Assembly: GCA_963833425.1 (NCBI GenBank)
Contig: CAWHXP010000005.1
Span: 32,001 to 96,000, forward strand
Direction: 5' to 3'
Origin: an uncultured Methanosarcinaceae archaeon
GTDB taxonomy: Archaea; Halobacteriota; Methanosarcinia; Methanosarcinales; Methanosarcinaceae
Length of the DNA stretch: 64,000 bases
The notes beneath the pieces are model-generated. The model was not told the origin of the DNA, did not search any database, and saw only the letters and a program-made list of their open reading frames with translations. A program made the translations under genes and the position numbers. Shown here piece after piece: positions 3,874 to 30,827 of the stretch (positions within the stretch are counted from its first letter, which is position 1; each line of letters opens with the position of its first letter).

Positions 3874-4156
3874 TAAACCCGAGACTCTCTTTAAATTTTT
3901 CCGAAAGCAAAAGATATATAGTTTTTCAGATTTCATCGATACCATACGGAGATTACCAAAATTTTAATTACACTTAAATTAATGTTCTATTAAATGATAT
4001 AGATTCCATAAAGTTTTCTGCATGAAGAGATTAAACAGCATCATACTGCATTTGAGCTTGTACGTATTCTGGCTGAATATGCTCAAATTGTTGAATTTAT
4101 TTGTAATTAGATTTTTTTGAGTTACAAGTCATGTTCTGTGTTATGGAGGAAGATGT

Positions 4157-6245: not shown

Positions 6246-6249
6246 TTCT

Positions 6250-10119: not shown

Positions 10120-11041
10120 TTCAAATTTCTCTCAACACTATACTCTTTTTTAGGTTTGCTCAGTGACTCATGGAGCTTATGGAACATATAGTGCATATGG
10201 AGCTCATGGTACATTTGGAACTAATTAGCCTAAACCATAGTCATAAATAAAATTCTGACTTAAAATGAGATAAGTAATACAATTTTTAAATGTTATATCA
10301 TAAAATATGAAAAAATTAAAGAAAAATATTAAAAATGAAGTTGTCATAAAGTTATATGTAGATCCGAAAAAGATTCAGGAACATCAACAGCTGCAGCGAC
10401 ATCGGCAAATTCTTCAGGTAACTATTTGAATCAATGTCAATAATATTCTCTTTAGTCATCTATAGGATTTCGATAAACAAAGCATGAAAATTATGTGAGA
10501 TGAACTCATTTGAAATTTGAAGCTTTTGTAGTAACTATTAAATTAGTTTAAGCGATATGTAGATGCTAATTCAAATTCGACTTTTTACATATATTTATTC
10601 ATTTATTTTTATTTATTTCTTGGCTCAATTTCAAAATCCAGTGATGAAATATATTCTTAAATTTCATCGCAGATCTATTTTTTCGTCTTGGTGTGGCAAG
10701 AGAATCTGCTTTAATGCATGAAAATGCAAGTGTTCATTGCACTGAAAAACTTCTCATGAAAATATCAACCATGTAACTTGGATGGCATTTTTGAGAGTTT
10801 GATGCATAAAAGTTCAGTAATTTGTTAAACTTTCTTCTCAACTTTTTATCCTATCCATTTACATCAACTACCCATTATATCTTAACCTTTGTCTTTTCAG
10901 TACATGCAGAGTTTTTTTGTGGCAAAATAGATGTATTTTCTCATTTTTCTCCCGAAATTATAGGACATTTTCACCTGATTGTGTAGAAAACGAACAGTTT
11001 TTATTAAAATATATGTTGTGATGGGAAGCGAAAAAGTTACT

Positions 11042-11508
11042 ATAGAGATTTTCGATAACCTCCATGCTCTTGAGCATGGTTTGCTTTAAATTTGTCAATA
11101 TTTATGTATATTCATGAAAACTCTTACTGATTTTGCTCTTAAATAAGAGTATAAACGTCTTGAATCTGTTGGAGATAAGCTTGCTGAAATTGCTTCCTTA
11201 ATTGATTGGAAAGCGTTTCGTATTATTCTTGAGTCTATGTATATCAACAAAACCGTTTCAAGAGGGAGACCTGAAACTGGTGTCATTGTGATGTTCAAAA
11301 TGCTTGTTTTACAACAATGGCATGGGCTCTCTGATTTTGAACTTGAGAAACATTGTATAGATCGAATTTCTTTTAGGAAATTCCTTGGATTTCCTGAATA
11401 CATATCTGGCAGTACTATTGTATGGCTATTTAGGGAGAGAATTATCGAGCATTTCAAAGAAAATATAGGGAAAGTTGCAAAGCCAACTTGGTGCTCTGGG
11501 TTTACAGA
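11042..11508 (+). mobile_element. Truncated second copy of the IS5 element, inverted relative to 6250-7332
   Basis: Near-identical to the reverse complement of about 6866-7332, including the terminal repeat and the same lesions. Confidence 0.9.
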
Positions 11509-11860
11509 TTTTCGATCATAATCTTTACTGGGTCAAGTGATGAAAAAGTTGGGAGTGATGCTGTAAAGAAAGGTGCTCAGGACTATTTAGTCAAAGGACA
11601 AATAGATAGTAGATTATTGAAACGTTCTATCCAATATTCTATTGAGACAAAAAAAAGTAAGAAGTACTAGCAAAATCAGATCGCTCTTAAAACGGAAATT
11701 CATTACAGGATTAAGAACAATTTACAAGTAATATTTCCACTTATCGACTTTCAAGCTGATAAATTCAAAGGCCGAAAGGGTATAACGGATTCAGAAGTCA
11801 TTGATGCTTTCAAGGAAAGTCAGCATAGAGTAATATCTATGCCCTTATCCATGAAGAATG
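11509..11860 (+). pseudogene. Response-regulator / HisKA_2 kinase fragment
   Basis: IIFTGSSDE...GAQDYLVKG followed by EIHYRIKNNLQVI and AFKESQHRVISM. Confidence 0.75.
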
Positions 11861-12167
11861 CTCCAATTTCAGAGAAGGCTGCGACGCTTTCCACATGCTT
11901 TTACTGGTATTGTCTCTCTTCAAATATACAAAAAAAATCATAATAAATATATAGAAGAAAAACTATTATCTATTTTACCACTATATACAATGTGTATTTG
12001 AATTTACTATATATTTTATATTAATGCTCAAGTTCTTATATTTTTTGTGCACCTATCATTAATTATCTCATATAGTCGAATAAATAAATTAACTAGTTTA
12101 TAGAAGGAATAGTTTCCTTATTTGGTTCACAGTATACCAAATAATGTACACAATTGGGGTTGATTAA

Positions 12168-12551
12168 GTGCGTATGGATGACGATGCAATCAAAGCAATT
12201 TTTGACTACATTACAACTAATGGTGAAGTACCAGGAGTACTAACGTATACAAGTGTTGATGAGTGGTTAAAATATGGCGGCATAACATTTCGTGAGATTG
12301 ACAAGGAACCATATTGGTCAAAAGCCTGCACAGACGGATCTATTATTTTTCATACAGACAGAGGAAATAGACAAACATACATAAAAGTGTGGACTGAAAA
12401 AGCCGGTAAACTTATAGGTTTCGAATTGAATCACAACATTGGGGGCGTTTTAATGATGGATGTAGAACATCAAAAAAATATATCTAATAACATCAGGGAT
12501 AAACAAGACACGCAAATGAGACAAGCAGAAAGTAATAAAAATAATAAATGA
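12168..12551 (+). CDS. Hypothetical protein
   Basis: 127-aa ORF with protein-like composition; no recognised motif. Confidence 0.5.
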   Translation: MRMDDDAIKAIFDYITTNGEVPGVLTYTSVDEWLKYGGITFREIDKEPYWSKACTDGSIIFHTDRGNRQTYIKVWTEKAGKLIGFELNHNIGGVLMMDVEHQKNISNNIRDKQDTQMRQAESNKNNK

Positions 12552-12624
12552 TCTAAAACAACTTAAGTCATCATTTTTAATAATGTGACATTTTATGTGT
12601 AAATTTATGTTTGTCCCAAAATCA

Positions 12625-12866
12625 GGCAATGTACGGAAAATTTTATAAAATCTAATTGTCTTTGTATTCTGTTATTGTCACTGCAAAAAAGCAGGATGTT
12701 GAGCTAATAGTTATGCTAACAAAGTTATGTTTCTATTGTTTCATTGATGCATAGGTTTTATGACAAAAAAAACTGTGCATCAATAAAAACTACAAATCTT
12801 ATTTTGATGTGGTTAAGACAAAGGACACAAAGTCGATAGAAATTTACAAAACTTTTGTACACTGCC
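12625..12866. mobile_element. About 240-bp MITE with GGCA(A/G)TGT ends (IS6-like)
   Basis: Imperfect TIR ggcaatgtacggaaaatttt ... aaaacttttgtacactgcc; partial relatives at about 60251-60410 and 63520-63638. Confidence 0.65.
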
Positions 12867-12879
12867 ACAGAGTAGAATA

Positions 12880-13095
12880 GGTGATCTCAAAACTCAGATC
12901 CAAGCATTTAATGATCAACTACAAGTCAAGGATGAATAGTTACATAGTAAAGATGAACAAATCAAGGATCAAAGGATGAGAATATGCATAAACAGGCAGC
13001 CAACATTCAAAATTTAATCAAAGATAATCGCAGTCGAACACAAAATTACTGCCTGAATAAACTGAAAAAAGAGTCATTGGTGGCGATTTTAGTAA
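12880..13095 (+). pseudogene. Coiled-coil protein C-terminal remnant (DUF536-like)
   Basis: QLQVKDE*LHSKDEQIK ... TKLLPE ... HWWRF terminus in broken frames. Confidence 0.5.
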
Positions 13096-13113
13096 CTTCG
13101 ACTATACTTATAC

Positions 13114-13584
13114 CTAGAGAGCCGATACATCTTTACTACAAACGATAGGGATAAATTCTTGTTTAGGTGGATATTTTATAGCTAGAGCCTTTATTATACC
13201 CAATATCAACAATAACGTCGAGAGACCTAAAATAAATTGGAAATCATATCTTTGAGCATATAGCCCAGCTGCAATTTCACGCAGGACTATTAAAATAGTA
13301 GCATCGGTTACATATGTAATTCTTATTTCTTCATGCTCGCGAAAATCAACAAAGATCTTGAAAAGGTCTATAAGAACGAAAATCGTTAGGATGCCAGCTA
13401 CTATCTGACCAAAACCGCCACCTAGAGTACCCAATAAAATTGATTTGATATTTAGCAGGATATTTATAACCCCCACAAGTAGCGCCAGTATCAGTATATA
13501 AAGGATAATAATAGTAATTGAATCAATAATAGTTTTAAATATTTTATAATGATTTGTCCTAAATGCGTTATACTTAGTTATCAC
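13114..13584 (-). CDS. Phosphate-starvation-inducible PsiE family membrane protein
   Basis: Four transmembrane segments; LTIFVLIDLF and DATILIVLREI motifs. Confidence 0.85.
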   Translation of the reverse strand: MITKYNAFRTNHYKIFKTIIDSITIIILYILILALLVGVINILLNIKSILLGTLGGGFGQIVAGILTIFVLIDLFKIFVDFREHEEIRITYVTDATILIVLREIAAGLYAQRYDFQFILGLSTLLLILGIIKALAIKYPPKQEFIPIVCSKDVSAL

Positions 13585-15061
13585 TTAATTCCCCTCCATA
13601 AAATAGACTAGCTTTTCTCAAATCTCAAATATGTATAATTTTAATCAATGTGTATAAAAATTAATAATTTTTTATATATATTATTTTTTTTGTCCAAATC
13701 AATAGAAGAAGGCTGTAACAAAATATGTAAGTTTTGTCACTAAATTTGAGTGAGAATCGGAAACGATGAGAAAAGTAAGAGTTATCAAAAGAAAAAAAGT
13801 AATGAATGTTTTATTTAAATAGCCTTGGATGCAGAATCTGTTTTTATGACCGTTTTAGCTGTTTTTTCTGCATTAACGTCATATACTTTATATAAAAATT
13901 TCTAATCTTACTTTTCCATAATATATAGCTACTTGGATTTGATGATATTTAATGCATGTTGTTTGTAGTAATTGCCTATACAATATAGATTGGTTGCAAC
14001 ATATAAGTACTAATGCATTTTTTAATTTTTTATAAATGTCTATTGTCACAATATAACTCCTTATACTTCATTTTATTTAATACAGGTTTGTCTATAGTAA
14101 TCGTCTGCTCTATACTTGTTAATTGCAACTTATAAGTACTAATGTATTTTTTAATTTTTGTATAAAGTATTGATACCAAATTCAAAAATAAGATCCGAAC
14201 TATTTGGAAGTTTTAATTATATATATTAAAGGTCTATGAAGTCTACGATATTTAATTAATCTACAAAAACTATATATTCATTTTAAGTATACCATTTCTG
14301 TTTATCAGTAAAGAAAAAAAATTCTTTCGAAATCTATTTACTGCATTCAAAAATTAAGTTTTTGACATCCTTTTTTTCATATTTTTAGTTTTGTTCAGTG
14401 GACTGTATAATTATTTTTCCCATAAAGTCCCTATTTATGATTGTACTTTGGTTTAATTCTTTTCAAGTGTCCCGAATGTTCCACGAGCTCCAGATGCTCA
14501 ATGAATCCCATAAGCTCCATTAGTAATAGATCAGAAATGTTTTCTTATTCTGGATGGAATTTAGGAAATTCAGAGATTTTAGCATAAAACATGTACATTA
14601 ATTGAGTTTAAGTCAATACATCCTTAGCTGTCCTGGTGAATTACAGTTGATTGGTTTCTTTGGGGCCTGTTTAAGATCCAAGAAGAACTCAAGCTGGGAA
14701 TAAGAATAACGCTTTACTTGTGAATAAAATTAAAATTTGTCCAAAAAAACAATATAAATTTTGTATATGTAATACTTGACAATCTGGATTTATAAGAACA
14801 TTCTAGGACTTACGCAGTTGAACAAAAAAATATAGAATTTAAGATTTAACTGTCTAAAAGCAAAGTTTAAGCTACAAAGATATAAAGCAGCCTAAGCGCT
14901 ACATCATCACTTATTCACTGTTAAGTCCATCCACCGATTATAATTTTATGTGGGCTTTATAATCCCAAACTATAAATAGACACAATTTTAAAAACTAAAT
15001 CCTGAAGAACAGAAGATCTCTTCCTAGTATAGTAATGTTTATTTTAGTTCAAAGCTGATAA

Positions 15062-16198
15062 TTGAAAATGGATGTTTCAGAGAAAAAAAATCTTCAAGGA
15101 GCTAATCTTCAGGGAGCTGATCTTATAGAGGCTAACCTTCAAGAGGCTAACCTTGAAGGAGCTAACCTTGAAGAAGCTAACCTTCGAGGAGCTAACCTTG
15201 AAGAGGCTAACCTTCGAGGAGCTAATCTTTTTTATGCTGATCTCACAGAGGCTAACCTTCAAGGGGCTAACCTTATAGAAGCCAACATTGAAATGGCTAC
15301 ACTACAATTGGCTAAACTTCATTTAGCTAACTTTAAAGGAGCTGATCTTCAAGGAGCTAACCTTCAAGGGGCTGATCTTTATGGAGCTGATCTTCAAGGA
15401 GCTAACCTTCAGGGAGCTAACCTTTATGGAGCTGACCTTCAAGAAGCTAACCTTGGAGGAGCTAAACTTGAAGGAGCCAAACTTGGAGGTGTTAAACTTG
15501 AACGGGCTTACCTTATAGAAGCTAACCTTGAAGGAGCTAACCTTGAAGGGGCTAAACTTGGTGGAGCTAAACTTGAAAGGGCTAAACTTGAAAGAGCTTA
15601 CCTTATAGAAGCTAACCTTCAAGGAGCTGATCTTCAAGGAGCTAGCCTTCAGGAAGCTATCCTTTATGGAGCTGACCTTCAAGAAGCTAACCTTCGAGGA
15701 GCTAACCTTGAAGGAGCCAAACTTAGAGGAGTTAAACTTGAACGGGCTTACCTTATAGAGGCTAACCTTGAAGGAGCTAACCTTGAAGGAGCTAACCTTG
15801 AAGGAGCTAAACTTGGTGGAGCTAAACTTGGTAGAGCTAAACTTGAAAGGGCTAAACTTGAAAGGGCTTATCTTATAGAAGCTAACCTTGAAGGAGCTTA
15901 CCTTATAGAGGCTAACTTTCAATGGGCTAATCTTCAAGGGGCTAACCTTAAAGGGACTTACCTTTTAGGAGCTAACTTTAAAGAAGCTAATCTTGAAGGA
16001 GCTAACCTTGAAGGAGCTAATCTTGAAGGGGCTCATCTTGTAGGAACCAACCTTGAAGGAGCTGACCTTGAAGGAGCTAAGAATTTATCGCTTTTCCAAC
16101 TTTCTAAAGTGAAAACACTTTATAATACAAAACTAGATGAAGATCTTCTCATGCTATTAAAAGAAGAATATCCTGCACTTTTTGAAGAACCTGAATGA
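15062..16198 (+). CDS. Pentapeptide-repeat protein, probably with decayed N-terminus
   Basis: Long A(N/D/K)LxG/E 15-bp repeat array from about 15090 to 16080. Confidence 0.85.
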   Translation: MKMDVSEKKNLQGANLQGADLIEANLQEANLEGANLEEANLRGANLEEANLRGANLFYADLTEANLQGANLIEANIEMATLQLAKLHLANFKGADLQGANLQGADLYGADLQGANLQGANLYGADLQEANLGGAKLEGAKLGGVKLERAYLIEANLEGANLEGAKLGGAKLERAKLERAYLIEANLQGADLQGASLQEAILYGADLQEANLRGANLEGAKLRGVKLERAYLIEANLEGANLEGANLEGAKLGGAKLGRAKLERAKLERAYLIEANLEGAYLIEANFQWANLQGANLKGTYLLGANFKEANLEGANLEGANLEGAHLVGTNLEGADLEGAKNLSLFQLSKVKTLYNTKLDEDLLMLLKEEYPALFEEPE

Positions 16199-17395
16199 AT
16201 TCTTATTATAACCATACAATTATTGATAGATCCAGCTCTCATAAATACAGAGATATTATAGCAAAATCTATGCATTAACGAAAAACAAGATGTTTCTATT
16301 GGGTTGAATTCCTACTCCTAAGTAACTGGAAGGAAGAAGGAAAATGGCACATCTAATAGGGCAACTGTTTAAAAAAATTGGAGTTTTTTGCTTGACTTTT
16401 ACAATATAACTATAACCAAAGTCCTAAATAGTAAAGGATCTATAGAGCGTAATAGTTTAATTAGTCCCTATAGTGGAAGTCTACTGACATTCTAATTTAT
16501 TCTATACTTCTCAAGTTTGTATTTTGGTTCGGTTGCACTCCGTAATGACATTTTTGCAAAAAATATCATAACTCTCTTTAAAAATAGAATTTGCGTTCTC
16601 ATTATTCATTTCTTAATGATTAAGACTAAATTGAGAAGCAGGCAAGGATCAAATATCTTTACTGTAACAGAAATTATAGATAATATATTTTTATCAACCC
16701 ATATATAGCAAATTACAAGGTAAATCGGAATTCTCTTTAATTATTAGTAAGTTTGAAAATTGTTTTCATGATCCGGAATTTGATCAATTATTCATAAATT
16801 CTCCCCGACTGCCAATAGAAAACCCAACAATCAAGCAGAAGCCCATCAGAGTATAGCGAAGGAAGTCAAAATAAGAATACTCAAACTCAGACTACTATCA
16901 CCACCAAAAACCTATAACAACTGGTGGCATCATCATCAACACCATGAAGCCAAGCAGATACCATCGCCAACAACACTGCTTAAAAAGATTAATCAAAAAT
17001 CTCTATAATATTTTTGGGGATATTCATTGGTACTTAAATATATCTGAATAGGTATTAAATTTTAGAACGTAAATCCTTCTTATCTAATTTAAAATATATC
17101 TATACTGGACTATCGGATCGCCTTCTTTGCAAACTTTAGAGCAACTTATCCAAAAATATTTTTGATAGTCCTAAGCAAATACTGAGTTCAAACTAATGTT
17201 AATATCGCTTCACAAATTGTTAGTTGAAGCAAAAAGATGGGTTTTGTACAAAAATGATTTAATTTAATACAAATAATGCTTAAAAATGCTTAAACAATGA
17301 TCAAAACTTTTTATAGTTACTACATGGTGCAGATATATCAGAAAATAAAAAATCAAGCTCCAAAATATGTACACTATCATACACAACATTAATTT

Positions 17396-17988
17396 TTATG
17401 CTCCATTAACGGTGAAAGCTGCCCAATAGTAAGGATGCTCAAAAGGCTTATCTTCTGGAGATTCTTTGGCCATTTCAACGTAGTGTTTTCTGTACTGTTC
17501 TATTTTCTTCTTGCTTTCGTCTTCCCATTCTCTCGAGCAGTGACATTTTTCTACATGATCAGCTACTTGATTAACAGTAAGGTCTTTAATATAGAGTTGG
17601 GTTTTCTACAAAGCCGTTGGAATATCCGTTTCCTTAGCAATATGATTAGAGTAGAACCGTTCCATTAGTATAGCTGTCGAAATATCTGGGACAGACCATA
17701 GACTGCTTACCACGCATGGAATACCCGCAAGCATAAAACCTGCAGGTAATCCAACGAACTCATCGGCACTACCTTTAACAATATCGGTGATACCTGTCTC
17801 ACAGGCAGAAAGTGTTACCAATCTTGCTGAAGAAATGTCCACAACGTCATTTTGGAGATCTGCCAAACTCAGTGTTCTTCTCCCAAACAAGTACAATCAA
17901 AAGTATGTGGATTGTCCTAGTTATGTCTGCAATGGCGGGAGAAATGGAGATATTAGTGTAAGCCAGATAAGGGAACTAATCAGCTCAT
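17396..17988 (-). pseudogene. CHAT (caspase/HetF-like) protease remnant
   Basis: LVTLSACETG, GLPAGFMLAG..VVSSLWSVPD and HPYYWAAFTVNG; internal stop at 17606; GGAGG-ATG at 17988, so most of the gene appears deleted. Confidence 0.9.
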
Positions 17989-18070
17989 AAACCTCCTAAC
18001 TTAGTTATATCAGAAGAAAGTGATTTATATCGTTGGATTAAGAAATATAAGGCTCTTTGGTGAGCTCATT

Positions 18071-21000
18071 TTAGTCTGATTTCTCAAATGAAAAAAAATG
18101 CATTTTACCAAGAGAATCACCTGCAACAATAGACTCACCATTCGGTGAAATGCAGCAGGCTAGAAACGGACTATCCCCTGTAAAATTAGAGATGATTATC
18201 CCTTGTTCCAGATCCCATACCTTGAGTGTTTTATCGCTGGAAGCTGAAATTGCATACCTTCCATCACGTGTGATTGCAACCGCATTCACCCAATTATCAT
18301 GTCCCTTTAGTGTTGTTTTTTCTTCTCCCCTTTCCAAATTCCATATCTTGAGTGTTTTATCATCGGAAGCTGAAACTGCATACCTTCCATCACACGTGAT
18401 TGCAACTGCATTCACCCGATAATCGTGTCCCTTTAGTGTTGTTTTTTTCTCTTCTCTGTTCCGATCCCATATCTTGAGTGTTTTATCGTCGGAAGCTAAA
18501 ACTGCATATCTTCCATCATGCGTGATTGCAACTGCATTCATCTTAGAAGAATATCCCTTTAGTGTTGCTTTTTCTTCTCCCCTTTCCAGATTCCATACCT
18601 TGAGTGTTCTATCGTAGGAAACTGAAACTGCATACTTTCCATCAGGTGTGATTGCAACTCCACGCACCCGACCATCATGTCCCCTTAGCGTTGTTTTTTC
18701 CTCTCCCTTTTCCAGATCCCATACCTTGAGTGTTTTATCTCCGGAAGCTGAAATCGCATACTTTCCATCACGTGTGATTGCAACTGCATTCACCCAATCA
18801 TCATGTCCCTTTAGTGTTGTTTTTTCCTCTCCCCTTTCCAGATTCCATACCTTGAGTGTTTTATCGCTGGAAGCTGAAACTGCATACTTTCCGTCAGGTG
18901 TGATTGCAACTGCATTCACCCGATAATCATGTCCCTTTAGTGTTATTTTTTCCTCTTCCTTTTCCAGATCCCATACCTTGAGTGTTTTATCGCCGGAAGC
19001 TGAAACTGCACACCTTCCATCACGTGTGATTGCAACTGCATTCACCCGATAATCATGTCCCTTTAGTGTTGTTTTTTCCTTTCCCCTTTCCAAATTCCAT
19101 ACCTTGAGTGTTTTATCTCCGGAAGCTGAAATCGCATACTTTCCATCACGTGTGATTGCAACTGCATTCACCCAATCATCATGTCCCTTTAGTGTTGTTT
19201 TTTCCTCTCCCTTTTCCAGATCCCATACCTTGAGTGTTTTATCTCCGGAAGCTGAAATCGCATACTTTCCATCACGTGTGATTGCAACTGCATTCACCCA
19301 ATCATCATGTCCCTTTAGTGTTGTTTTTTCCTCTCCCTTTTCCAGATCCCATACCTTGAGTGTTTTATCTCCGGAAGCTGAAATCGCATACTTTCCATCA
19401 CGTGTGATTGCAACTGCATTCACCCAATCATCATGTCCCTTTAGTGTTGTTTTTTCCTCTCCCCTTTCCAGATTCCATACCTTGAGTGTTTTATCGCTGG
19501 AAGCTGAAATCGCATACTTTCCATCACGTGTGATTGCAACTGCATTCACCCAATCATCATGTCCCTTTAGTGTTGTTTTTTCCTCTCCCTTTTCCAGATC
19601 CCATACCTTGAGTGTTTTATCATCGGAAGCTGAAATCGCATACTTTCCATCACGTGTGATTGCAACTGCATTCACCCAATCATCATGTCCCTTTAGTGTT
19701 GTTTTTTCCTCTCCCATTTGCAAATTCCATATCTTGAGTGTTTTATCGCTGGAAGCTGAAATCGCATACTTTCCATCACGTGTGATTGCAACTGCATTCA
19801 CCCAATCATCATGTCCGTCAAGAGTTCTAATCAACGATCCTCCTGGTGATTTCAAGGAACAAGTTCTTGGAAGTAATCTGATACCATCTTGACATTCACA
19901 TGCTTGACCTAGTAATGTTTGTATCCCCTCTTCGTGAAAACTAAGGAGACGTCCTAGAAGTTGTCCTGCAAGCTGAGTTTCATTTTTTATTAAAGCATTA
20001 TATGAAAGTTTAATTGCACTTTGTACAAGCCTTATTTCAGTATCATCGAGTAGGTAATCGTAATCATGGATAAGAGAATTTATGTTAGGTATTTTGATAC
20101 CCGTTTTGTCATTTCTAACGGTCACATGCTCCAATTTGGTGTGCATCCATTCAAAGTTTAAAAGAAGCATATGAAGTTCTTCTTTTCTTCCAGCTTCTTT
20201 CATGTGGTATGCAAGATGCTCGAAGAAGTACCCATCATTAGGGCCCGTACTCCACTTATTTTTACAATCTTTAGGATATGCTTCTAGCAACTGATTGTGA
20301 AGGCTTGTTAAATCACGTGTTGTAGCTCTCAGGTAATCAAGTTGCAGGTCATGAAGAGATATAAAGCGATGAGGTGCTTCACCATCTAGTCGCAGAAGAG
20401 ACATCTCTTTCAATTTAGATATCAATTTCCCAGAATTGCGCTTTTTTAAATTTCCAGTATGTGCCCAAAAAATCGCAATTGTAGCTTCAGGTACAGGTTC
20501 ATCTGTAGGAAAAATCGCCAGTTCCTGATAACGCTTTACTGCATCTGAATCTTCACTTGAAAGAAAGTCGAGACTGACTTTAAATGCTTTCATCACATTG
20601 GAATTTGGATAGTTTGGCAATTGAGCTTCAATAAATTCAAGATCAGCTTCTTGTAAAGCCTCCAAAATATCTAACCATGATATTCCACTTTTAGCCATCG
20701 CTCCACACATGGATAGAGCGAGTGGCAGGTATCCACATTCCCTTGCCACTCCTTTTGCTTCCGATGGCAATAAGTTTACATCCTTATCATACCAATTTGC
20801 TAGAAGCTTCAAAGCTTCAAGTTCGCTGAATGTTTTAATCTTGTGTTCCTGAGCTCCAAGTGAGGTAACAACATTATTGTTTCTTGTGGTAATAAGCAGT
20901 TTACACATTTTACCTAAAGCATTAACAAAAGGCACTGCATCTTGAACTTTCCAAACGTCGTCAAGTATAATGAGGCATGTTTTATTAGAAAGTACCTTTG

Positions 21001-21973
21001 AAAGACTCGCTTCAGCTTCCTTTTGGCTGCTGTAATTTGCAGGATCATCGCCAAATTCTCTACCGACTAACTTCAAGCCCCCTATAAGATCAGGATTCTC
21101 TAAACCTACAGTAACCCAGAATATCCCATCATGAAAAGCGTCGCGAGCTTCTCTACTTTGGGCAAGGGCTGTGGATAATACGGATTTTCCCATTCCTCCC
21201 ATACCTTGAAGTGAGTTTATCTGCTTTGCAGATGTGATTGCTGCAGATTTTGTGAAATCAGCCAGCATCAACTCTTTTATTTTCTTAAGATCTTCTGTTC
21301 GAGATAAATAATGAGGAGGTAGTGTAGGTACTCCAACAATTGGAGCAAGATGCTCAGATAGAAACTCAAAAATACTGAGGTCAAATGAATGCTCTTTGCA
21401 AACATTTAATATCGAATCAATAGGACTAAAGCCACCTGACAATATGCCTGTAGCTGTCTCCTTATAAACAACTATTCCTACGATATCGTTTAGTTTAGCG
21501 TCGAAAACCGGAGTACCGCTAAATCCTCCTTCAATATTATACCCGATAAACTTAGAAACGTCAATCTGAACGAAGTCAGGATAAGCCCTCCCTCTCCCTA
21601 ATACTGAGACCCACTCTGCTTTATCTCCATATGGAAAACCGCATACTTTGAGTTCTCGATCCCAGAAATCATCTGTGAGCATAAGCTTTCCTATACTGGC
21701 ACATGAAGGAGCTTCATCTTCAAGCTTAAGAATAGCAAAGCCATATTCTGTGTTTTGCGACCAAAAGAAAATGTGAGATTTTAGAACTTTATTTGGCTCA
21801 TCAAGATAAAAAGTCAGATATATCTCATCGCCTATTTTAGCATTTGGCGAAACATCATTGACTACGTGCCTGCAAGTAAGTATCCACCTTTTCCCAATTA
21901 GAAATCCAGCACCTTGTGCGTCCCTGTTCTTATCTAGAACTTTGACTATTGAGGACTCTGGTAAATGATTCAT
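18071..21973 (-). CDS. Trypsin-like peptidase + NB-ARC (STAND) NTPase + WD40 repeats (Apaf-1-like NLR)
   Basis: LTCRHVV and GGFSGTPV; Walker A GMGGMGKS, Walker B LIILDDVW, LPLAL, LHDL; 13 near-identical plus one divergent WD40 repeat. Confidence 0.93.
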   Translation of the reverse strand: MNHLPESSIVKVLDKNRDAQGAGFLIGKRWILTCRHVVNDVSPNAKIGDEIYLTFYLDEPNKVLKSHIFFWSQNTEYGFAILKLEDEAPSCASIGKLMLTDDFWDRELKVCGFPYGDKAEWVSVLGRGRAYPDFVQIDVSKFIGYNIEGGFSGTPVFDAKLNDIVGIVVYKETATGILSGGFSPIDSILNVCKEHSFDLSIFEFLSEHLAPIVGVPTLPPHYLSRTEDLKKIKELMLADFTKSAAITSAKQINSLQGMGGMGKSVLSTALAQSREARDAFHDGIFWVTVGLENPDLIGGLKLVGREFGDDPANYSSQKEAEASLSKVLSNKTCLIILDDVWKVQDAVPFVNALGKMCKLLITTRNNNVVTSLGAQEHKIKTFSELEALKLLANWYDKDVNLLPSEAKGVARECGYLPLALSMCGAMAKSGISWLDILEALQEADLEFIEAQLPNYPNSNVMKAFKVSLDFLSSEDSDAVKRYQELAIFPTDEPVPEATIAIFWAHTGNLKKRNSGKLISKLKEMSLLRLDGEAPHRFISLHDLQLDYLRATTRDLTSLHNQLLEAYPKDCKNKWSTGPNDGYFFEHLAYHMKEAGRKEELHMLLLNFEWMHTKLEHVTVRNDKTGIKIPNINSLIHDYDYLLDDTEIRLVQSAIKLSYNALIKNETQLAGQLLGRLLSFHEEGIQTLLGQACECQDGIRLLPRTCSLKSPGGSLIRTLDGHDDWVNAVAITRDGKYAISASSDKTLKIWNLQMGEEKTTLKGHDDWVNAVAITRDGKYAISASDDKTLKVWDLEKGEEKTTLKGHDDWVNAVAITRDGKYAISASSDKTLKVWNLERGEEKTTLKGHDDWVNAVAITRDGKYAISASGDKTLKVWDLEKGEEKTTLKGHDDWVNAVAITRDGKYAISASGDKTLKVWDLEKGEEKTTLKGHDDWVNAVAITRDGKYAISASGDKTLKVWNLERGKEKTTLKGHDYRVNAVAITRDGRCAVSASGDKTLKVWDLEKEEEKITLKGHDYRVNAVAITPDGKYAVSASSDKTLKVWNLERGEEKTTLKGHDDWVNAVAITRDGKYAISASGDKTLKVWDLEKGEEKTTLRGHDGRVRGVAITPDGKYAVSVSYDRTLKVWNLERGEEKATLKGYSSKMNAVAITHDGRYAVLASDDKTLKIWDRNREEKKTTLKGHDYRVNAVAITCDGRYAVSASDDKTLKIWNLERGEEKTTLKGHDNWVNAVAITRDGRYAISASSDKTLKVWDLEQGIIISNFTGDSPFLACCISPNGESIVAGDSLGKMHFFSFEKSD
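18180..19815 (-). repeat. 126-bp tandem repeats encoding WD40 blades
   Basis: 13 units of 42 aa, several identical or nearly so at DNA level. Confidence 0.95.
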
Positions 21974-21982
21974 TCAAAAGCC

Positions 21983-22309
21983 TCATGCCGTTTTCCAAGA
22001 AAGAGTGACCTTAAAATTTGCCTCAACGCTTGTAGTTGCAATAAAGGCTCCAGCTTGCGCATTCATTATGATCCCAAACTCAACCCCTATACAATCAGGC
22101 TTACTGCTTAGACTCTTTAGTCTCTGTACAATAACGTCTGCAGCAGGCCTGATGACATCCAGAGCTTTTTCAAATTCTTTTGTTGCTTCTTCAGGCACTC
22201 CTGACGGTCTAGAAACAGGAGTCCGACCTCTTTCGGATTCTGTTTCCTCTACTTCAATTAAAACAGCTCCACCCTCTTCAAGGTTATATTTCACAAGTTT
22301 CTTAGTCAC
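21983..22309 (-). CDS. Trypsin-co-occurring domain 1 (Trypco1) protein
   Basis: FEKALDVIRPAA...PDCIGVEFGI...EANFKVTLSW pattern; ends 9 bp before the trypsin-domain gene. Confidence 0.85.
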   Translation of the reverse strand: MTKKLVKYNLEEGGAVLIEVEETESERGRTPVSRPSGVPEEATKEFEKALDVIRPAADVIVQRLKSLSSKPDCIGVEFGIIMNAQAGAFIATTSVEANFKVTLSWKTA

Positions 22310-23773
22310 TATGCTTTCCTCCTACAAAAAATTAGTAATGAAGATTCGATTCATATCGTCCACAATGTAAGTAATTTGCATATTGTTACTTTTAAATAAG
22401 TCACTTATTTTTGTTTTTTAGCCTATTTATAATAATTTCTTGAAATAAACTATTTTTTAAGAGTTAGGGTCTCTAAACATTTAAATTGCAGAAAATTTCA
22501 GATGAAGATTTGTGATAAAAAGGGCCTGTTAAAGATTTGGAGGACAAAGATTGGAAGAGGGGTAAAAACTGGAATTTAGAGTAAAAGACTTAAAAGCTCA
22601 GCATTCGGCGGCTCAGGTGACTCTAGCTCCTAACTGATATTATATCAGTTGGAACAGGCATAACTAAGAAACTTCAAACGGGGGAGGTAGAAAAATGAAT
22701 TGACATCTCGCCCATAACTTTAGTTTAGGAATTATGTGCTTGAAGTTTAAAATTAAAATTATTATATGGTGCAATTGACAAATTTTATTCAGACCGTTCA
22801 AGTTTTAATTCTATTGATTTCAGTTCAACCATTTAAGTCATAATTAAAAAATAGCAGGGAAAGATAAAATATATTGGCACCCCGCGCAATGAGAACTTGA
22901 AAATATAACAAACATGCATAGTAATTGATGATACAAATGCGGAATCTTATCAATCAAAAAGCTATAGAATCACCAGGAGCAAAGGAGCCTGGTTAATGTT
23001 TTGAACTTTTTCTATGCGTGCATCACCAAGATTTCATTAAGTTATTTATTAATCATGCGTACACAATCTCCTTTTTAGCTCAAATTTAATTGAATGGATC
23101 ACTATTTAATAGGTAATTATGTTCATTTAAGTTTGATATAACAAACAGTAACTAACGGAGTTATTGGGTATTTATTTGAAGCTTTTTCGCTAATTACAGT
23201 CTTTTTATGCGAATTAATCAATTTAATTCGACATTATTCAGCATTTTAATGAATAAATTGAATTAATTTTTGGGATTTATTTCCACTTTAATCTAAAATT
23301 GTTATTTATTTGATCATTATTTATGCCGAAATTATAGAGTTACAAGAGACTATTTAAGCTTCAAATCCTAAAAAAAACAAGTTTAATAGTAAGAATTATA
23401 GCTTAATTGTAGTAAGGAAAGGTAAATATTTATTGCGTAAGTTATTTACACCCAGTTTACCCATCACTAATTATCCACAGAGTAAAATTCTTTTGTGAGT
23501 TCGCCGTTTGATGTCCTATAATCATAGAGATATGGTCCGTAAGTTCTAATTGATTTTGTATTTCAAGATCATAATCAAGAGCACACTGCTTTAGGTATAG
23601 TTGCTCTAAAGTGTAATAATGATGCACAATATAGCCAATCTTCCCATATCAATTTTATGAAATTTTCAAACTTTAATATTTGTATCGGACATAGGGTTAT
23701 TTATCAATTTACAGAAAATGACACAAAAAGATTAAACACCTACTCATTAACTAAACTATAAAGAATCTTTTAA

Positions 23774-24142
23774 TTAAATAAATGATTCAGTGTGGCTATC
23801 TCTAATTCTAATCTTTTCTAAAATTTTCATTCTAATCTTTTCTGCTTCATTTTCAGTTATACATGGGATATTCTGCTCCACTACTCGAGATTGCCCTTCT
23901 GCAGATAAATACAGGAACTCTCGAGCATGTGAGCTTAAACTTCTCTGATCTTCAATAACAAGCCTATAAACTGGCCGACTGGTATATTGCACCTTAGGAT
24001 TAAAAAAATATTCAAAATGTGCGTGTAGATCCCCTTCCCGGTAAAGAGAGAACAGATTTTTGCAATCCCAAGGTAACTCCTTGCCTATTTTTTGCCTTGC
24101 TTCAAGAGCTTGTAATCTTTTTTTCATTGATACTGTTACCAT
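23774..24142 (-). CDS. Hypothetical protein of integrated element
   Basis: 122-aa ORF, upstream GTGAAG/GAAG purine tract, N-terminal KKRLQALE. Confidence 0.6.
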   Translation of the reverse strand: MVTVSMKKRLQALEARQKIGKELPWDCKNLFSLYREGDLHAHFEYFFNPKVQYTSRPVYRLVIEDQRSLSSHAREFLYLSAEGQSRVVEQNIPCITENEAEKIRMKILEKIRIRDSHTESFI

Positions 24143-24299
24143 ATCTTCACTTCACATTTTCAATATTGTATTTTTCCCTAATCTGGCTATAATTCCATTA
24201 TACTTACCAGAATATTAATGGAATCTTGGCATAAATGGTAATTAAACTTCCATATTATACAGCATACGACTCTCCGATCGAGCTTCCAGAATAATAATT

Positions 24300-24611
24300 T
24301 CATTCTACTCTTGTAAATAACGGAGTGTCCGAAAGAGCATAACCATTCTGTGCCTGATAATTTTCCAGAGCTTCAAGTCTCTTCTGAAAATCACCAATAT
24401 CCAAATCTTTCATTATCGCATTTTGGACCTGTAAAGCCTGAATGAAAACTCTGATATAGGCCAGCTTTAAGCTATCTCCTTCCTGAACTCTGAAACGTTT
24501 TGCCTTCAATCTCTTTTGAAGCTGTTCAATTAATTCTGAATTTGCACTTAACAGTGACTCTCGTGTTAGTAATTTAAGAGTAGCTATTGGGGTACTAACA
24601 GTGTTCTTCAT
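24300..24611 (-). CDS. Hypothetical helical protein of integrated element
   Basis: 103-aa ORF with QKRLEALE near the C-terminus; co-oriented with the element genes. Confidence 0.6.
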   Translation of the reverse strand: MKNTVSTPIATLKLLTRESLLSANSELIEQLQKRLKAKRFRVQEGDSLKLAYIRVFIQALQVQNAIMKDLDIGDFQKRLEALENYQAQNGYALSDTPLFTRVE

Positions 24612-25354
24612 TAAATCCCTTTATAACGTTTTGTCGGTTAATTGTCAAGAATTTATAGTAATATATTGTATTTATAAATATATACATTTTAGTGCATGTA
24701 TCGTAAATAAATGTTATACTACTGTTTCATCTTCTAATCACATCTTTGATCTTCTGAATATACATTAATATGTAGACCTAAATTATAAAAACAAATTCTT
24801 ATAATTAGTCTAAAGTATAATTTTTAATGAGTTAATGATAAACTATTACTTATGCGATTTAAACTTCACCACTGGCTTCTAATGCATTCTTATGACACTT
24901 AATCATTTACAATCCCCCTTAGACACAAATTATGAAGTTTTGTAAAATTTCCCCAAAAATTATTATAGAAAATCCACTTATCATGCAATTTACCGGTTAG
25001 CTTACTATTTACGAAAATTATAAACTGAAACAGATAAGTAAGCTCTTGAATCTAAAAAGATCACTACTAAACTATTTATTAGTCCAAATTTTAATAATCC
25101 TAATGAAATCGCTTATACTTGAGTTTGTACTCTAAGTGAGTAAGTCATATTAAAGAAAAGTCAGTCTACACTTGCTGATATAGAAGATTGGGACTTGATA
25201 AGAGATTCGATCGGGCTAAAAGGAGTTACTTATAAAAATTGGTTTAAATATCTAATTACAGTTTCACACATTCTTCCGGTCAAATAGCAATAAATGCAAC
25301 CTAACACTTCGTCCCCCTGCAACAGTAATAGTATTATTTGGGGAACTCTCTTGC

Positions 25355-25696
25355 TTAGGAGTGCATTTTTAAGGTGGGGTATCCTTCATAACAGTTATTG
25401 CATAACACAGTCACAGTAGGACTTTTACCCTTTTGTCGGATCGTTTTTATCATTCCACATTTTTCTAACTCGTTCAATGCTGTCGGAAAAGCCCAATCAG
25501 GGATAGGTAAAAGGGAATTTATACCTTTCAAGGTGACTACTAAATTTGTAGATTTTTTAATACCTTTTAAGTGCCAAATGTACATAGCCACCCTATAAGT
25601 ATGCCCAACTGAATTTGAAGGTAGCTTCACAATCCATTCTAAAGGCAATTGGGGTATGAAGTATCCTTTTATTTTATCTCTAGAATTTACTAACAT
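25355..25696 (-). CDS. Winged-helix protein, second copy of 35767-36135
   Basis: Nearly identical protein and DNA at an offset of 10439 bp. Confidence 0.8.
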   Translation of the reverse strand: MLVNSRDKIKGYFIPQLPLEWIVKLPSNSVGHTYRVAMYIWHLKGIKKSTNLVVTLKGINSLLPIPDWAFPTALNELEKCGMIKTIRQKGKSPTVTVLCNNCYEGYPTLKMHS

Positions 25697-25797
25697 GATT
25701 TTACCCCATCTAATATTATTTCTAAATGATAAGAGTAAATAAATAAGAAATATAAAGAAATATAAGTAGTAAAAACATTATCCGAAGGCTTTAGAAT

Positions 25798-25880
25798 TTA
25801 GCTGTGTAGCTAATTAATTTTAGCTGTAGAGCGAAATATATTTTGCTGTGCAGCTAATTAATATTGCTCTGTAGCTAAAT
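25798..25880. repeat. Iteron-like 21-22-bp repeats (copy 1)
   Basis: ttagctgtgtagctaattaatt / ttagctgtagagcgaaatatat / tttgctgtgcagctaattaat / attgctctgtagctaaat. Confidence 0.8.
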
Positions 25881-25921
25881 TCAAAGTGTAGACAAAACAG
25901 ATTATTGGAACTATTCTGCTT

Positions 25922-26012
25922 TCAGCTTCCTTCTTCTTTAATTTCTCCTAAAATCTCCATAATCAAATGCCACTTTTCTGCACCCTTCTCATCTATATAC
26001 CTATCAGGATAA
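25922..26012 (-). pseudogene. C-terminal fragment of a second family A DNA polymerase allele
   Basis: YPDRYIDEKGAEKWHLIMEILGEIKEEGS* versus YPERYIDEKGAETWNLIMRILKEVKQE* in 36388-38157. Confidence 0.85.
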
Positions 26013-26099
26013 AGATCGTATTAAAAATACCTTTGATAATTACATGAACAAGTTCAAACCTTATTTATCAAAAACCATTTGAAGCATCTAGAGCAAAAA

Positions 26100-26116
26100 A
26101 GCCCTGGTGGGGATTT
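26100..26116 (-). other. Putative att site: 3' end of a tRNA (possibly tRNA-Thr)
   Basis: Minus strand reads AAAT-CCCCA-CCAGGGC-T (partial T-loop, T-stem, acceptor strand, discriminator) followed by a T-run. Confidence 0.6.
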
Positions 26117-27543
26117 TGGTGATGATAGCTACCTTAAGACGCTGAATATATCAATAGTGGATTTTTATTCTATTAAAATTTGATTGAGTTTAGAAAGTCA
26201 AGATTAACGAATTAATGACTCATTAGATTCTCGATTCACAGCAAACTTCGTTAGAATTTGTTGTCTTATTTCATTTATTTCTGCCATAAAGTCTTACAGA
26301 CTGAAGCCAGATATACTCAGGACTGTCTAATACCTTCAGGCAAAATATATTGCAAATCCAGGTTTATGAAACCGATCTCTGAACTCACAAATGAAATGTA
26401 CCTGGATTATGTAGGCTCATGATAATTAATAAAATGACATTTTTCCGCTTCAGGAAAGCTCTGGCTCAAATATGAACGAGTATAGGGCGATTCGAGGCAT
26501 TTTCTTGAGAAGTTAATTAAAACTATTAACTAGATGGAAAAAAACCCCATGATAGGGCTTAAAATAAGCCAGTTTTTGTCAATCCGTTAGCAAAACATGG
26601 GACAAAGTCAGCAATTTAGTCCAAACTAATCAAAAAGTAAATGAAATCTCATGTTGATTTAGAGAATCTGGAGAAGCCTGTTAGTCAACCATCACCTATT
26701 TGCTCTCGTAAACCCTAAGTAAGTCCAAGATATAGCTAATAATAATTTTTATTACTTTATTAATATAATAGGATATTGAACGCATTTAGTTTAAATTGTA
26801 TTAGATATACTTCTTTATCTGAAATAAAGATGATCCATTTATATAAAAACTAAACTATAACTCCAGATTAAAAAGTGGTTATTACAGATTTTTCATCCCT
26901 GTGACTACTAATCAGGTCCAAAATTAACATTTTATGCAACTATATTTCAAAAATTAAGATCAAACATAATCAAGGACCGTTATTTTCGGTTCGGTCAATG
27001 GGATGCGGTGACAAAAAACAAATTAGTTCATTACTTCCAGTTTTGGATAATAAGCCTAATAACAAAAATAAGTGGAGCGGAAGGATCAAAAACTTTATTT
27101 GCTCAATGTTGTGACAATACTTCTCATTGAATTTAGCTATTATCATAGACATCCCAATACCTTGCAGTAGACTTCGTACCTTTAAATCATAAATTTTAAT
27201 AAATGGTAGTAAAGTCTTCCTTATAAAAAATAAATATAATTTATAAAAATCAGATAAAATAAATATTGAATTTGTTCTATTGCCTGAAAATAAGGCAATC
27301 ACATAGTCAATAAAATATATTTTAAAGTTGTAAAATAAATTTTTGACTTTCTAAAATTTAGTATCTATTCAGATAAATTTATGTATTTACTTGATTATGT
27401 ACTCAAAATTCCAAAATGGAAATCTTTATTTTATTAGCTAGGGATATCTCATTTATCTTTTATCTCAAAATTTTGATCTTAGAGCTAAAATGGTGAACTG
27501 TTGTGATAAAACCCAACTTTTGTACCAGAAAGCCGGAGAAGTT

Positions 27544-27900
27544 TATTTATTCGAATTTTTTAATTCTTCAAGATTTCTCTCACAAAAATCAATTCGTCTA
27601 AGATCTTCAATTTTTCTATCCATTTTTATTGCCTGTTCATAATACTCAATTGCTTTTATTGTCTCTCCCAAATCTCTATACGCGTTTCCCAGATTACCAA
27701 GGTGAATTCCTTCTGCGTCCCTATTTCCAATTTCTTTAGCAATTTTGAGTGCTTGTTCATAATACCCAATTTCTTTTTTCGTCTCTCTCAGAGCACTGTA
27801 TGCATTCCCTAGATTTCAAAGTTGATTTCCTTCATTAAGTCTATCACCTATTTATCTTGCAATTTTTAGTGACTGTTCAAGATAATTTATTGCTTTCCTC
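27544..27900 (-). pseudogene. Orphan TPR 3'-end cassette 1
   Basis: EGIHLGNLGNAYRDLGETIKAIEYYEQA...IEDLRRIDFCERNLEELKNSNK*; homologous to 34700-35050; contains frameshifts. Confidence 0.85.
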
Positions 27901-28734
27901 CCTACTTATGCTGCTCGGAGTGTTTCTCATCTTTATGTTCTTCACCGGATTTTTTGCTGTCGTTTTGTTGCTCATCTGAGTGTTTCTTCTTAGGAGCCGT
28001 GTAAATACATCCAATTCCCAGAACAACGCGTCCAATCGCCAGTAATATTAAGATTATATAGTTTGGAAACTTTGTCTTCATATTATGCACCTATTTTTAT
28101 ATTTTATAATGCATTATTAATTTATAGATAATTGACTTATTGACTTATTATCTATAATGATTATAGCAAAATGCAAATATTATATAAATACTGCCTATAT
28201 ATACTATATATATTTATATATGAATAAAGTGTTTAGCAAAGGAAAAAATATAAATCCAATAACTCCAAAGATAATTTTACGCATGTAAATAATAAAATAA
28301 GATCTTTTTAATATAAGACTTATGAAGGCTCAACTGCAAAATCTCCTTTAAGTATTTATCGCGTAAATAATGAATAAAAAAGTTGGGAATGATTTTTTTC
28401 TTATTTGTAAGTGGAAAAAATCTGTCTCAGGATGAACTTTAAGAAAAAAATGTGCCAACCTATAGCTAAAAGCAGAATACAAGTTGATTGTCTCTTGATG
28501 ACGTCTGATGTCCTCACGGTTCTAATTTTGTCTTTTGATGCAATTGTAACCAGTGGTGAACAAAAACCCATTAATAATCAAAGTTTAGCTTCGGTAGTAA
28601 AAAGATGGGGGATGGAAGTAATGATCTTACTTAAGACTAACCTTTTCCTTTTTGTTCAGTCTAAGTTGTAATATGATCGGTTTTGTTGCAAAAATAATAT
28701 CTCTGCAGTTTACTCATTAATTTTTACCTTTATG

Positions 28735-29069
28735 TACTATTTTTCTCGGTTATGAGACTAATTAATTTTCAAATTGTGATAAACATATTGATTTTGTAAC
28801 AAAGCCAAATTTTTTGCACCAAAAATCAGCAAGTTTATTTTTTCTAAATTTTTAATTTCTCAAGATTTCTCTCGCAAAAATCAATTAGTCGGGAATCTTC
28901 AATTTCTTTAGCAATTTTGAGTGCCAGTTTATAATATCCAATTGCTTTCTTTGTCCTTCCAAGATCATTGTATATTATTCCCAGATTTCCAAGGCATTTC
29001 CCTTCTCCTTTCTTACCCCCAATTTCTTTAGCAATTTTGAGTGACTGTTCATAATACTCAATTGCTTTT
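28735..29069 (-). pseudogene. Orphan TPR 3'-end cassette 2 plus 3' flank
   Basis: KAIEYYEQSLKIAKEIGGKKGEGKCLGNLGIIYNDLG...IEDSRLIDFCERNLEKLKI*; homology to 34820-35150 includes about 100 bp of non-coding DNA. Confidence 0.85.
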
Positions 29070-29104
29070 ATAAGATAGCATCATTATTTTGTAGGAGATA
29101 AACT

Positions 29105-29410
29105 ATGGAGAAAATTGGATTGGTAGAGACGATAGAAGCCTTGCGGTCAGAGTTATCTGCGGCGGTAAAGAAAGCCCAAGGACAAGAGATTCAGTTTCCG
29201 ATAGGTTCAGTACAACTGGAGTTCCAGGTAGGAGTGACATGGGACGCAGAGACTAAGGGTAAAGTCAAGTTCTGGGTATTGGAGTTAGGAGCGAGCGGCA
29301 AATATGCAAACGAATCGGTCCAGAAGGTCACTCTTAATCTTGAAGCCCCAGTGAACACTGAGGGAAATATAGTGAAAGTGACAGAACATTCGCGACAGAG
29401 ACCGAGTTAG
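29105..29410 (+). CDS. Trypsin-co-occurring domain 2 (Trypco2) protein
   Basis: IGLVETIEALRSEL...VQLEFQV...VKFWVLELG...QKVTLNL pattern; RBS GGAG; directly upstream of a trypsin gene. Confidence 0.85.
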   Translation: MEKIGLVETIEALRSELSAAVKKAQGQEIQFPIGSVQLEFQVGVTWDAETKGKVKFWVLELGASGKYANESVQKVTLNLEAPVNTEGNIVKVTEHSRQRPS

Positions 29411-29422
29411 GGAGGGTAGATA

Positions 29423-30823: not shown

Positions 30824-30827
30824 CTCA

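Follow-up and report, generated by a model that had tools for sequence, protein, structure and literature searches.

A probable Pepco-class protease module with an Apaf-1-like sensor in a Methanosarcinaceae archaeon, and the CHAT gene fragment beside it

Does a caspase-like gene fragment that lies directly behind an Apaf-1-like sensor gene belong to the same system? The question is raised by a locus of an uncultured Methanosarcinaceae archaeon (GenBank assembly GCA_963833425.1), in which a small Trypco1 gene, a gene for a protease-NB-ARC-WD40 protein and a CHAT fragment follow one another on the minus strand. We analysed the locus within a stretch of 64,000 nucleotides (contig CAWHXP010000005.1, positions 32,001 to 96,000), referred to here as the window, and positions are those of the window throughout. 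A preliminary description of this DNA, made from the letters alone, took the three for an apoptosome-like set, a former protease cascade whose CHAT member had decayed. All three are present where it placed them, including the fragment with its LSAC motif. We put at about 0.72 the probability that the locus is a co-transcribed two-gene conflict or defence module of the published Pepco (Trypco)-protease class, of which the CHAT fragment is no member.

The class was outlined by Kaur et al. (eLife 2020; PMC7159879), who named Trypco1 and Trypco2 as genes accompanying trypsin-like peptidases in nucleoside triphosphate-dependent conflict systems and mention Methanosarcina mazei among the few archaeal hosts. 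A recent preprint (bioRxiv 10.1101/2025.11.14.688446) equates Pepco with Trypco1/Trypco2. It describes how SsPepco of Streptomyces subrutilus is cut by its trypsin-Avs4 partner, within a C-terminal tail of ~20 residues, and becomes a toxic beta-barrel pore former. According to the same preprint the S151A mutant of the protease abolishes function in the tested system, and the partner protease of a Pepco protein is of serine or cysteine type. The words archaea, WD40, NB-ARC and Apaf are absent from its main text, and its figures or supplements may list such architectures. A full-text literature search combining Methanosarcina with NB-ARC, WD40 or Apaf-1 gave none naming Methanosarcina among the matches listed.

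The first gene of the pair encodes a protein of the Trypco1 family. The family profile PF19493 matches it over positions 2-97 of 98 (E 1.1e-25; 90.6 bits, the cut-off being 24.6), NCBIfam CU044_2847 also matches (E 2.8e-21), and a GGAGG motif precedes the start codon. After a gap of only 9 bp the large open reading frame (ORF) for the sensor protein begins in the same direction, and the two frames run uninterrupted over 1,408 codons. The coordinates of the pair, of the domains of the large protein and of the neighbouring features discussed below are collected in Table 1.

Table 1. Features of the locus in window coordinates (aa, amino acids)
Feature	Position	Strand	Remarks
Trypco1 (Pepco-type) small protein gene	21983..22309	-	108 aa; GTG start; stop codon included
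Large ORF, trypsin/NB-ARC/APAF1_C/WD40	18071-21973	-	1300 aa
Trypsin-like serine peptidase domain, aa 1-207 of the 1300-aa protein	21353..21973	-	Trypsin_2 match
Linker VPTLPPHYLSR and Apaf-1-like nucleotide-binding module (NB-ARC, winged helix, APAF1_C), aa 208-710	19844..21352	-	Pfam; Apaf-1 match; invariant columns
WD40 sensor region, aa 711-1300	18071..19843	-	13 units of 42 aa and a 37-aa closing unit; stop codon included
Dispersed 106-bp repeat at the junction of sensor stop and CHAT	17954..18059		12 genome matches including itself
CHAT pseudogene, most likely a 5′-truncated TPR-CHAT paralogue outside the module	17395..17952	-	TAG and frameshift within 17897-17952; TAG 17606-17608
Trypco2, trypsin-TIR, TIR-NB-ARC-TPR module	29105-34892	+	Pfam; 7 kb from the Trypco1 module

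The large protein joins a protease to an Apaf-1-like switch and sensor. Trypsin_2 matches residues 21-167 (E 3.2e-8), NB-ARC residues 251-468 (E 3.9e-25) and the helical domain APAF1_C (PF17908) residues 555-620 (E 8e-13), with an APAF-1-like winged-helix domain matched weakly, below the cut-off, at residues 481-548 (E 9e-4). Walker A (GMGGMGKS 257-264, K263), Walker B (LIILDDVW 334-341, D338/D339) and the LHDL motif (540-543, LHD at 540-542) fall in alignment columns that are invariant among 24 homologues. Apaf-1 is the best relative of solved structure (E 5.9e-27), query residues 254-617 aligning with Apaf-1 151-517. The P-loop, the Walker B, the conserved His-Asp of the 'MHD' type and the succession of APAF1_C and a WD40 propeller sensor are those of an AP-ATPase or Apaf-1-like STAND protein. 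The preliminary description had read the NB-ARC domain with its MHD-type LHDL and helical domain correctly, and was right, too, about an Apaf-1-like STAND that is fused to a trypsin-like domain and has Trypco1 as its partner.

The WD40 units run from residue 718 to 1300, and counting confirms the 13+1 blades first noticed: 13 units of exactly 42 aa and one degenerate unit of 37 aa. Pfam reports 13 WD40 stretches and, at 1225-1295, TEP1_C; Tandem Repeats Finder gives a period of 126 bp with 12.8 copies and 90% matches. The units (18206-19816) are near-identical, with a mean pairwise identity of 79% and with units 4, 5 and 9 100% identical. Differences between units concentrate at positions 2, 6, 7, 15, 25 and 34-37 of the 42-aa unit. 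In their likeness to one another the units resemble the repeats with high internal conservation of fungal NOD-like receptors. Apaf-1 has 7+8 blades, rather than the 7+7 that the parallel with two seven-bladed propellers had assumed. The copy number read here is uncertain, as near-identical units in such an assembly may have been mis-assembled. The sequencing runs listed as sharing words with this DNA include none of RNA; three DNA runs, all from one study, contain 5-6% of the words sampled, in the form of six contigs of 151-187 bp that are identical to the window and too short to fix the number. The nearest homologue has 8 units against 14 in the window protein, so the number of sensor blades is not conserved.

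That nearest full homologue, locus L099 on a metagenome contig, repeats the gene pair as a whole. Its Trypco1, also of 108 aa, is 67.6% identical to that of the window and is followed, after the same 9-bp gap, by a trypsin-NB-ARC-8xWD40 gene whose product is 51% identical. Methanosarcina sp. T3 combines a Trypco1 of 56% identity with a trypsin-ARM gene, the trypsin part being 62% identical, and searches with a two-sequence trypsin alignment found one locus in each of two collections. Within the host family Trypco1 was found in 45 of 177 genomes and in only two of 16 genera (39/58 and 5/6 genomes).

We fetched 19 of these Trypco1 loci. A Pfam scan took in 93 ORFs of 17 loci, the other two (L052 and L060) being syntenic with L051 and checked by tblastn. 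A trypsin domain follows Trypco1 in nine of the 19. It is fused to nSTAND1 (L057, L058, L059), to NB-ARC (L065, and likewise L017, outside the 19), to NACHT (L068) or to ARM repeats (L053), stands alone before a TPR protein (L064), or survives as a fragment (L050, L061). Beside Trypco1 in eight of the 19 (L050, L051, L052, L054, L056, L060, L062, L063) lies a SIR2-CHAT fusion of ~510 aa, and then an nSTAND1-WD40 gene. One locus (L055) has broken nSTAND1 pieces and no protease ORF that could be found, and no Trypco1 partner was found in two (L066, L067). The constant unit is Trypco1 plus a protease, of serine or cysteine type. The SIR2-CHAT protein of these loci matches the PADLOC 'chat' model (E 4e-20) and has a ThsA-like SIR2. 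PADLOC 2023 offers no model matching Trypco1 or Trypco2, and the trypsin domain matches only its LmuA and RT-Protease models, weakly. The host assembly (G000; 4.07 Mb in 21 contigs, 80% complete) has a second Trypco1 locus, on contig C3, which is broken. In the relatives of these systems on C3, C8 and C20 of the same genome, SIR2 is kept only to residue ~301, directly before nSTAND1.

The large protein is a mosaic. Its nucleotide-binding oligomerization domain (NOD) region (208-710) is 71-72% identical to Methanosarcina proteins of TIR type, against 51% to the trypsin-type protein of L099. Among the best 120 homologues of the NB-ARC-WD40 chassis, the N-termini carry by BLAST label TIR in 69, CHAT in 17, trypsin in 10 and other domains in 14, and are too short in 10. 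A quick maximum-likelihood tree of the 120 NB-ARC regions puts the window protein in a well-supported set with 15 TIR-type and 2 unlabelled proteins, and six changes of the trypsin label are needed on this tree, at least four of them forced by supported branches. At the join, the linker VPxLPPxFLPR is conserved across all N-terminal types. Taken together, the kinship of the NOD region with TIR-type proteins and the label changes on the tree show Trypco1 and trypsin behaving as a portable cassette that replaced TIR on the chassis. In this family of systems CHAT domains are alternatives to trypsin (SIR2-CHAT in 8/19 loci, N-terminal CHAT in 17/120 proteins), not followers of it.

What, then, is the CHAT fragment? 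It does run in the direction of the pair and does retain LSAC, as first described: the open frame 17396-17896 has 166 codons, a single internal TAG and the motif VTLSACETG. The fragment ends in HPYYWAAFTVNGA, with the C-terminal HPYYWAAF kept. Pfam covers only positions 175-288 of the 289 of the CHAT profile (PF12770; E 5.3e-27). Like those of the pair, this E-value is far removed from what chance would give. The fragment does not hold a complete domain with His and Cys regions in one frame, the YLHFS codons standing in a broken frame at the border of homology. Over all 166 residues it is 76.5% identical (76.6% in nucleotides) to the C-terminus of an intact 394-aa CHAT ORF elsewhere in the genome (G000:C6:27254-28435), which is closely preceded by TPR ORFs and lies among genes for citrate synthase, rhomboid and PhoU. 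DNA homology with this C6 paralogue begins 119 bp past the stop codon of the sensor gene, at the YLHFS codons (~residue 208 of 394).

The collinearity between window and C6 is interrupted by the module. Positions 17395-17952 correspond to C6 27250-27808, and 23693-24990 to C6 30291-31590 at 87%. The two matches are 2,482 bp apart on C6, where the TPR part and the N-terminal half of the CHAT gene lie between them. In the window they are 5,740 bp apart, a distance taken up by the repeat, the sensor gene and Trypco1 together with 1.4 kb of upstream DNA. An insertion of the module that replaced part of a TPR-CHAT gene is plausible from this arrangement. A synteny search with the pentapeptide/PsiE flank and the upstream flank found no orthologous empty site, its results being dominated by multi-copy genes and dispersed repeats. 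The order of dispersed repeat and then CHAT recurs at C6:106745-107216, with no STAND nearby. The fragment is most likely the unrelated wreck of a stand-alone TPR-CHAT paralogue, brought to its place by rearrangement at dispersed repeats.

The linkage of CHAT genes to homologues of the module elsewhere had been set beforehand as the test of a cascade, and the outcome is largely against it. Queries with canonical CHAT matched none of 27 related loci (the 19 Trypco1 loci, L017, L099 and 6 NB-ARC loci). No canonical CHAT lies downstream in L099, L059 or L065, the downstream 3.9 kb of L099 holding convergent genes with no Pfam match and no similarity to CHAT. A separate caspase or canonical CHAT gene conserved beside the homologues, as an apoptosome-type set would have, is not found in these loci. 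The fragment gave no similarity match with the SIR2-CHAT type.

CHAT sequences are common in this genome and mostly in ruins. With the intact C6 protein as query, tblastn finds 11 CHAT places in the host, and just one of the 11 Pfam CHAT matches spans the whole domain in one open frame. At six other CHAT loci the ORFs scanned with Pfam include no Trypco or trypsin ORF, and two short CHAT relics adjoin nSTAND1 fragments (tblastn, same genome). In five close relatives that share the dispersed repeats (G172, G173, G175, G019, G163) there are 46 CHAT pieces, most of them interrupted by stops and many reduced to 3′-end relics; NB-ARC is found in 0/5 of these genomes and nSTAND1 in 1/5. Broken copies occur by the dozen on contigs C2, C6, C7, C8, C13, C18, C19 and C20 of G000 and in the five relatives. 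Many consist of the last 40-65 codons and ~70 bp of 3′ flank, and in this clade they are like a dispersed repeat.

How the two genes would act together can be sketched from the tested systems, and it is by this analogy that we infer a trigger, a cleavage and a pore here. The 14-unit WD40 region would sense the trigger, probably a viral protein. The Apaf-1-like NB-ARC switch would then exchange nucleotide and oligomerise, and the fused N-terminal trypsin-like domains, brought together, would be activated by proximity. The protease would cut Trypco1, encoded 9 bp upstream, and Trypco1 would become a membrane-permeabilising beta-barrel effector by which the cell is killed or arrested.

Several points weigh against the reading of the locus as a Pepco-class pair that stands apart from the CHAT fragment, and we take them together. 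To begin with, trigger, cleavage and pore are drawn wholly from likeness to known systems. Next, the small protein lacks the part in which SsPepco is cut. In the 24 members of the 47-sequence Trypco1 alignment whose C-terminal tails were read, no tail of ~20 residues is displayed and 2-14 residues follow the conserved Trp. The Trypco1 of the window ends 3 residues past this Trp105, with nothing like the cleavable tail that follows a conserved Ile in SsPepco. The activation site must therefore differ from that of SsPepco. An AlphaFold 2 monomer model (mean predicted local distance difference test score, pLDDT, 67) has a hairpin, a low-confidence or disordered linker (25-35), a helix (38-65) and a second hairpin, and in a Foldseek search of this model against the PDB there was no match at E <= 0.001. 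In the model, the poorly conserved, Arg-rich, low-confidence linker (residues ~22-37) is the best candidate cut site. We entertain only tentatively the fuller idea of an archaeal Apaf-1-type 'apoptosome' that would license a Pepco-like pore former through a Trypco1 cut outside the C-terminal tail, with a cassette recombining at VPxLPPxFLPR. If true, a cut outside the tail would be a second activation mode for the Pepco effector family.

The protease raises a further objection. His36 (21866-21868) and Ser152 (21518-21520) are kept, and the position of the catalytic Asp is taken by Gly78 (codon GGC, 21740-21742; GAC, one transition away, would be Asp), which leaves the Ser-His-Asp triad incomplete. 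Asp stands at this position in 8/8 trypsin-bearing chassis homologues and in 11/11 other Trypco-linked trypsin domains that we aligned, including that of the Trypco2 module in the window; the two alignments together cover 18 other domains. A 170-bp contig from a public run has identical letters across the Gly78 codon, and this run may be the assembly's own source. The replacement of Asp by Gly78 makes present protease activity doubtful, and the protease of this copy is probably weakened or dead, so that it may not work at all. Hence the module could be a recently inactivated relic of the same identity, its protease killed by the Asp-to-Gly change and its decay under way, a thought encouraged by the broken second Trypco1 locus and by the near absence of whole CHAT domains in the genome. 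Both reading frames are intact, however, and His36, Ser152, the P-loop, Walker B and LHD are all kept. Ser-His dyads can keep some activity. We regard inactivation as a possibility to be taken seriously, though not as the likely state of the module, and it concerns the present condition of the pair rather than its kind.

The last objections concern the fragment. At three of the 11 CHAT places (that of the window, C8:431890-432054 and C2:408303-408476) a STAND gene or fragment immediately precedes CHAT on the same strand, where rough arithmetic (~7 STAND loci, 4.07 Mb) would expect ~0.02 such adjacencies at random. The adjacency of CHAT and STAND is therefore not random. An 835-bp repeat (86% identity) is common to two of the three, which thus may be one event. 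In the relative G172 the 1.5-kb flank is found on the opposite side of a CHAT gene, so that the replacement scenario is not the sole reading of the mosaic. We read the adjacency as a by-product of rearrangement in junk-rich variable regions; an older linkage is possible.

These adjacencies are also an argument for a three-part protease cascade, in which the STAND-borne trypsin activated, or was activated with, a downstream TPR-CHAT protein that has since decayed. Such a cascade could further appeal to the direction of the fragment and its closeness to the sensor stop, to the SIR2-CHAT gene between Trypco1 and nSTAND1-WD40 in eight loci, and to L050, which holds both a 170-aa trypsin ORF and SIR2-CHAT. 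Yet canonical CHAT is missing from all 27 related loci, the fragment shows no similarity to the SIR2-CHAT type, and the genes paralogous to it are solitary, TPR-bearing and set in unrelated surroundings. The close relatives are rich in CHAT relics and almost without STANDs, one repeat accounts for two of the three adjacencies as its copies, and a dispersed repeat separates sensor and fragment in a junction that also exists where there is no STAND. The former cascade of the preliminary description is improbable on this evidence. Equally hard to maintain is a role other than antiviral defence, that of a switch for self-directed cell death or for conflict among kin which would go with the way Methanosarcina aggregates and forms multicellular bodies: Kaur et al. 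(2020; PMC7159879) connect such systems with multicellular prokaryotes and name M. mazei, and the restriction of Trypco1 to two of the family's genera would fit, but the only experiments on the class show toxicity triggered by a phage protein (bioRxiv 10.1101/2025.11.14.688446), and the variable island around the locus also contains another STAND module, a recombinase and dispersed repeats.

That second module, built on Trypco2, had been called a sister of the first. The same design logic is indeed found in both; descent from a common element is not supported, since hhalign gives Trypco1 and Trypco2 a probability of 1.4%, in a shallow test, and the two STANDs of the window align only at the P-loop (E 0.023). 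In the Trypco2 protein a tail of 21 residues follows the Pfam match. Relics of the TPR array flank this module at 35182-35526 (+), 27546-27815 (-) and 28847-29080 (-). The two on the minus strand were considered as the lost N-terminus of the CHAT gene and rejected, as they are only 35% identical to the TPR part on C6. Their match, like that of the third, is with the array of the TIR-NB-ARC-TPR gene next to them, at 78-82% nucleotide identity. Direct repeats of ~650 bp (25366-26015 and 35807-36475, 85.8% identical) bracket the Trypco2 module. The genome has nine more partial or full copies of this repeat, one of them beside the broken Trypco1 on C3 (170130-170695), and each copy in the window contains an ORF of 113-122 aa without Pfam match.

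Further out, the segment 36388-42126 (-) carries a family A DNA polymerase-like gene (PF00476, E 4e-27) and a gene for a 443-aa tyrosine recombinase (Phage_integrase; archaeal XerA-like) among ORFs without family match. It may be an integrated element bordering the defence island; no tRNA gene was found in the window. In the regions 2000-15000 and 22310-29100 ORFs above 90 aa are few and short dispersed repeats numerous (23170-23678 and 17152-17350 are examples), as befits a decayed, repeat-rich variable region. A gene for a 378-aa pentapeptide-repeat protein lies at 15062-16198 (+); its many paralogues across the genus crowded the results of the synteny search. The window also holds archaeal shikimate-pathway genes, SRP54 and the XerA-like recombinase, and close homologues carry Methanosarcina names, which points to an archaeal host resembling Methanosarcina.

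The general picture of Pepco/Trypco systems is unchanged by this locus, the class being already published (Kaur 2020; Pepco preprint 2025). What the reading proposed here would add is a methanogenic archaeon in which an immunity design of protease and effector, characterised recently in bacteria, is built on an Apaf-1-like chassis, together with a clean natural case of an effector-cassette swap, in which Trypco1 and trypsin have replaced TIR on the same sensor backbone. A protease without its Asp and a Trypco1 without a tail pose two concrete biochemical questions. From the neighbouring caspase-like gene fragment, membership in a cascade should not be read without comparative support.

Among known systems, the stand-alone TPR-CHAT genes (PF12770 with N-terminal TPR) are the kin of the fragment, which differs from them in having stops and in lacking the TPR part and about the first 207 residues. 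The Trypco1/SIR2-CHAT/nSTAND1-WD40 systems share with the module the Trypco1 subfamily (43-50% identical) and a WD40 STAND sensor. Unlike the module of the window, they use as protease a cysteine peptidase of CHAT type, which is joined to SIR2 and encoded by a separate gene between Trypco1 and STAND, and their STAND is nSTAND1 rather than NB-ARC. With Apaf-1 and its prokaryotic orthologues the large protein has in common the NB-ARC, the winged helix, APAF1_C and the WD40 beta-propeller sensor. It differs from Apaf-1 in having neither a CARD nor a recruited separate caspase, its protease being fused and of serine type. A preprint (bioRxiv 10.64898/2026.01.04.697583) describes orthologues of Apaf-1 in prokaryotes that have WD40 sensors and, at the N-terminus, caspase-like proteases, and places the closest Apaf-1 homologues in cyanobacteria, whereas the host here is an archaeon. 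The closest likeness is to the Pepco modules. SsPepco and its trypsin-Avs4 partner differ in having a bacterial host, an Avs4 chassis in place of the Apaf-1-like NB-ARC and WD40, a long C-terminal tail and a protease with its catalytic Asp, for which the window has Gly. In both, a small gene of the Trypco family stands immediately upstream of, and in the same direction as, a gene whose N-terminal trypsin-like peptidase is fused to a STAND sensor, and in both the pair of protease and effector is modular and exchangeable with other effector domains.

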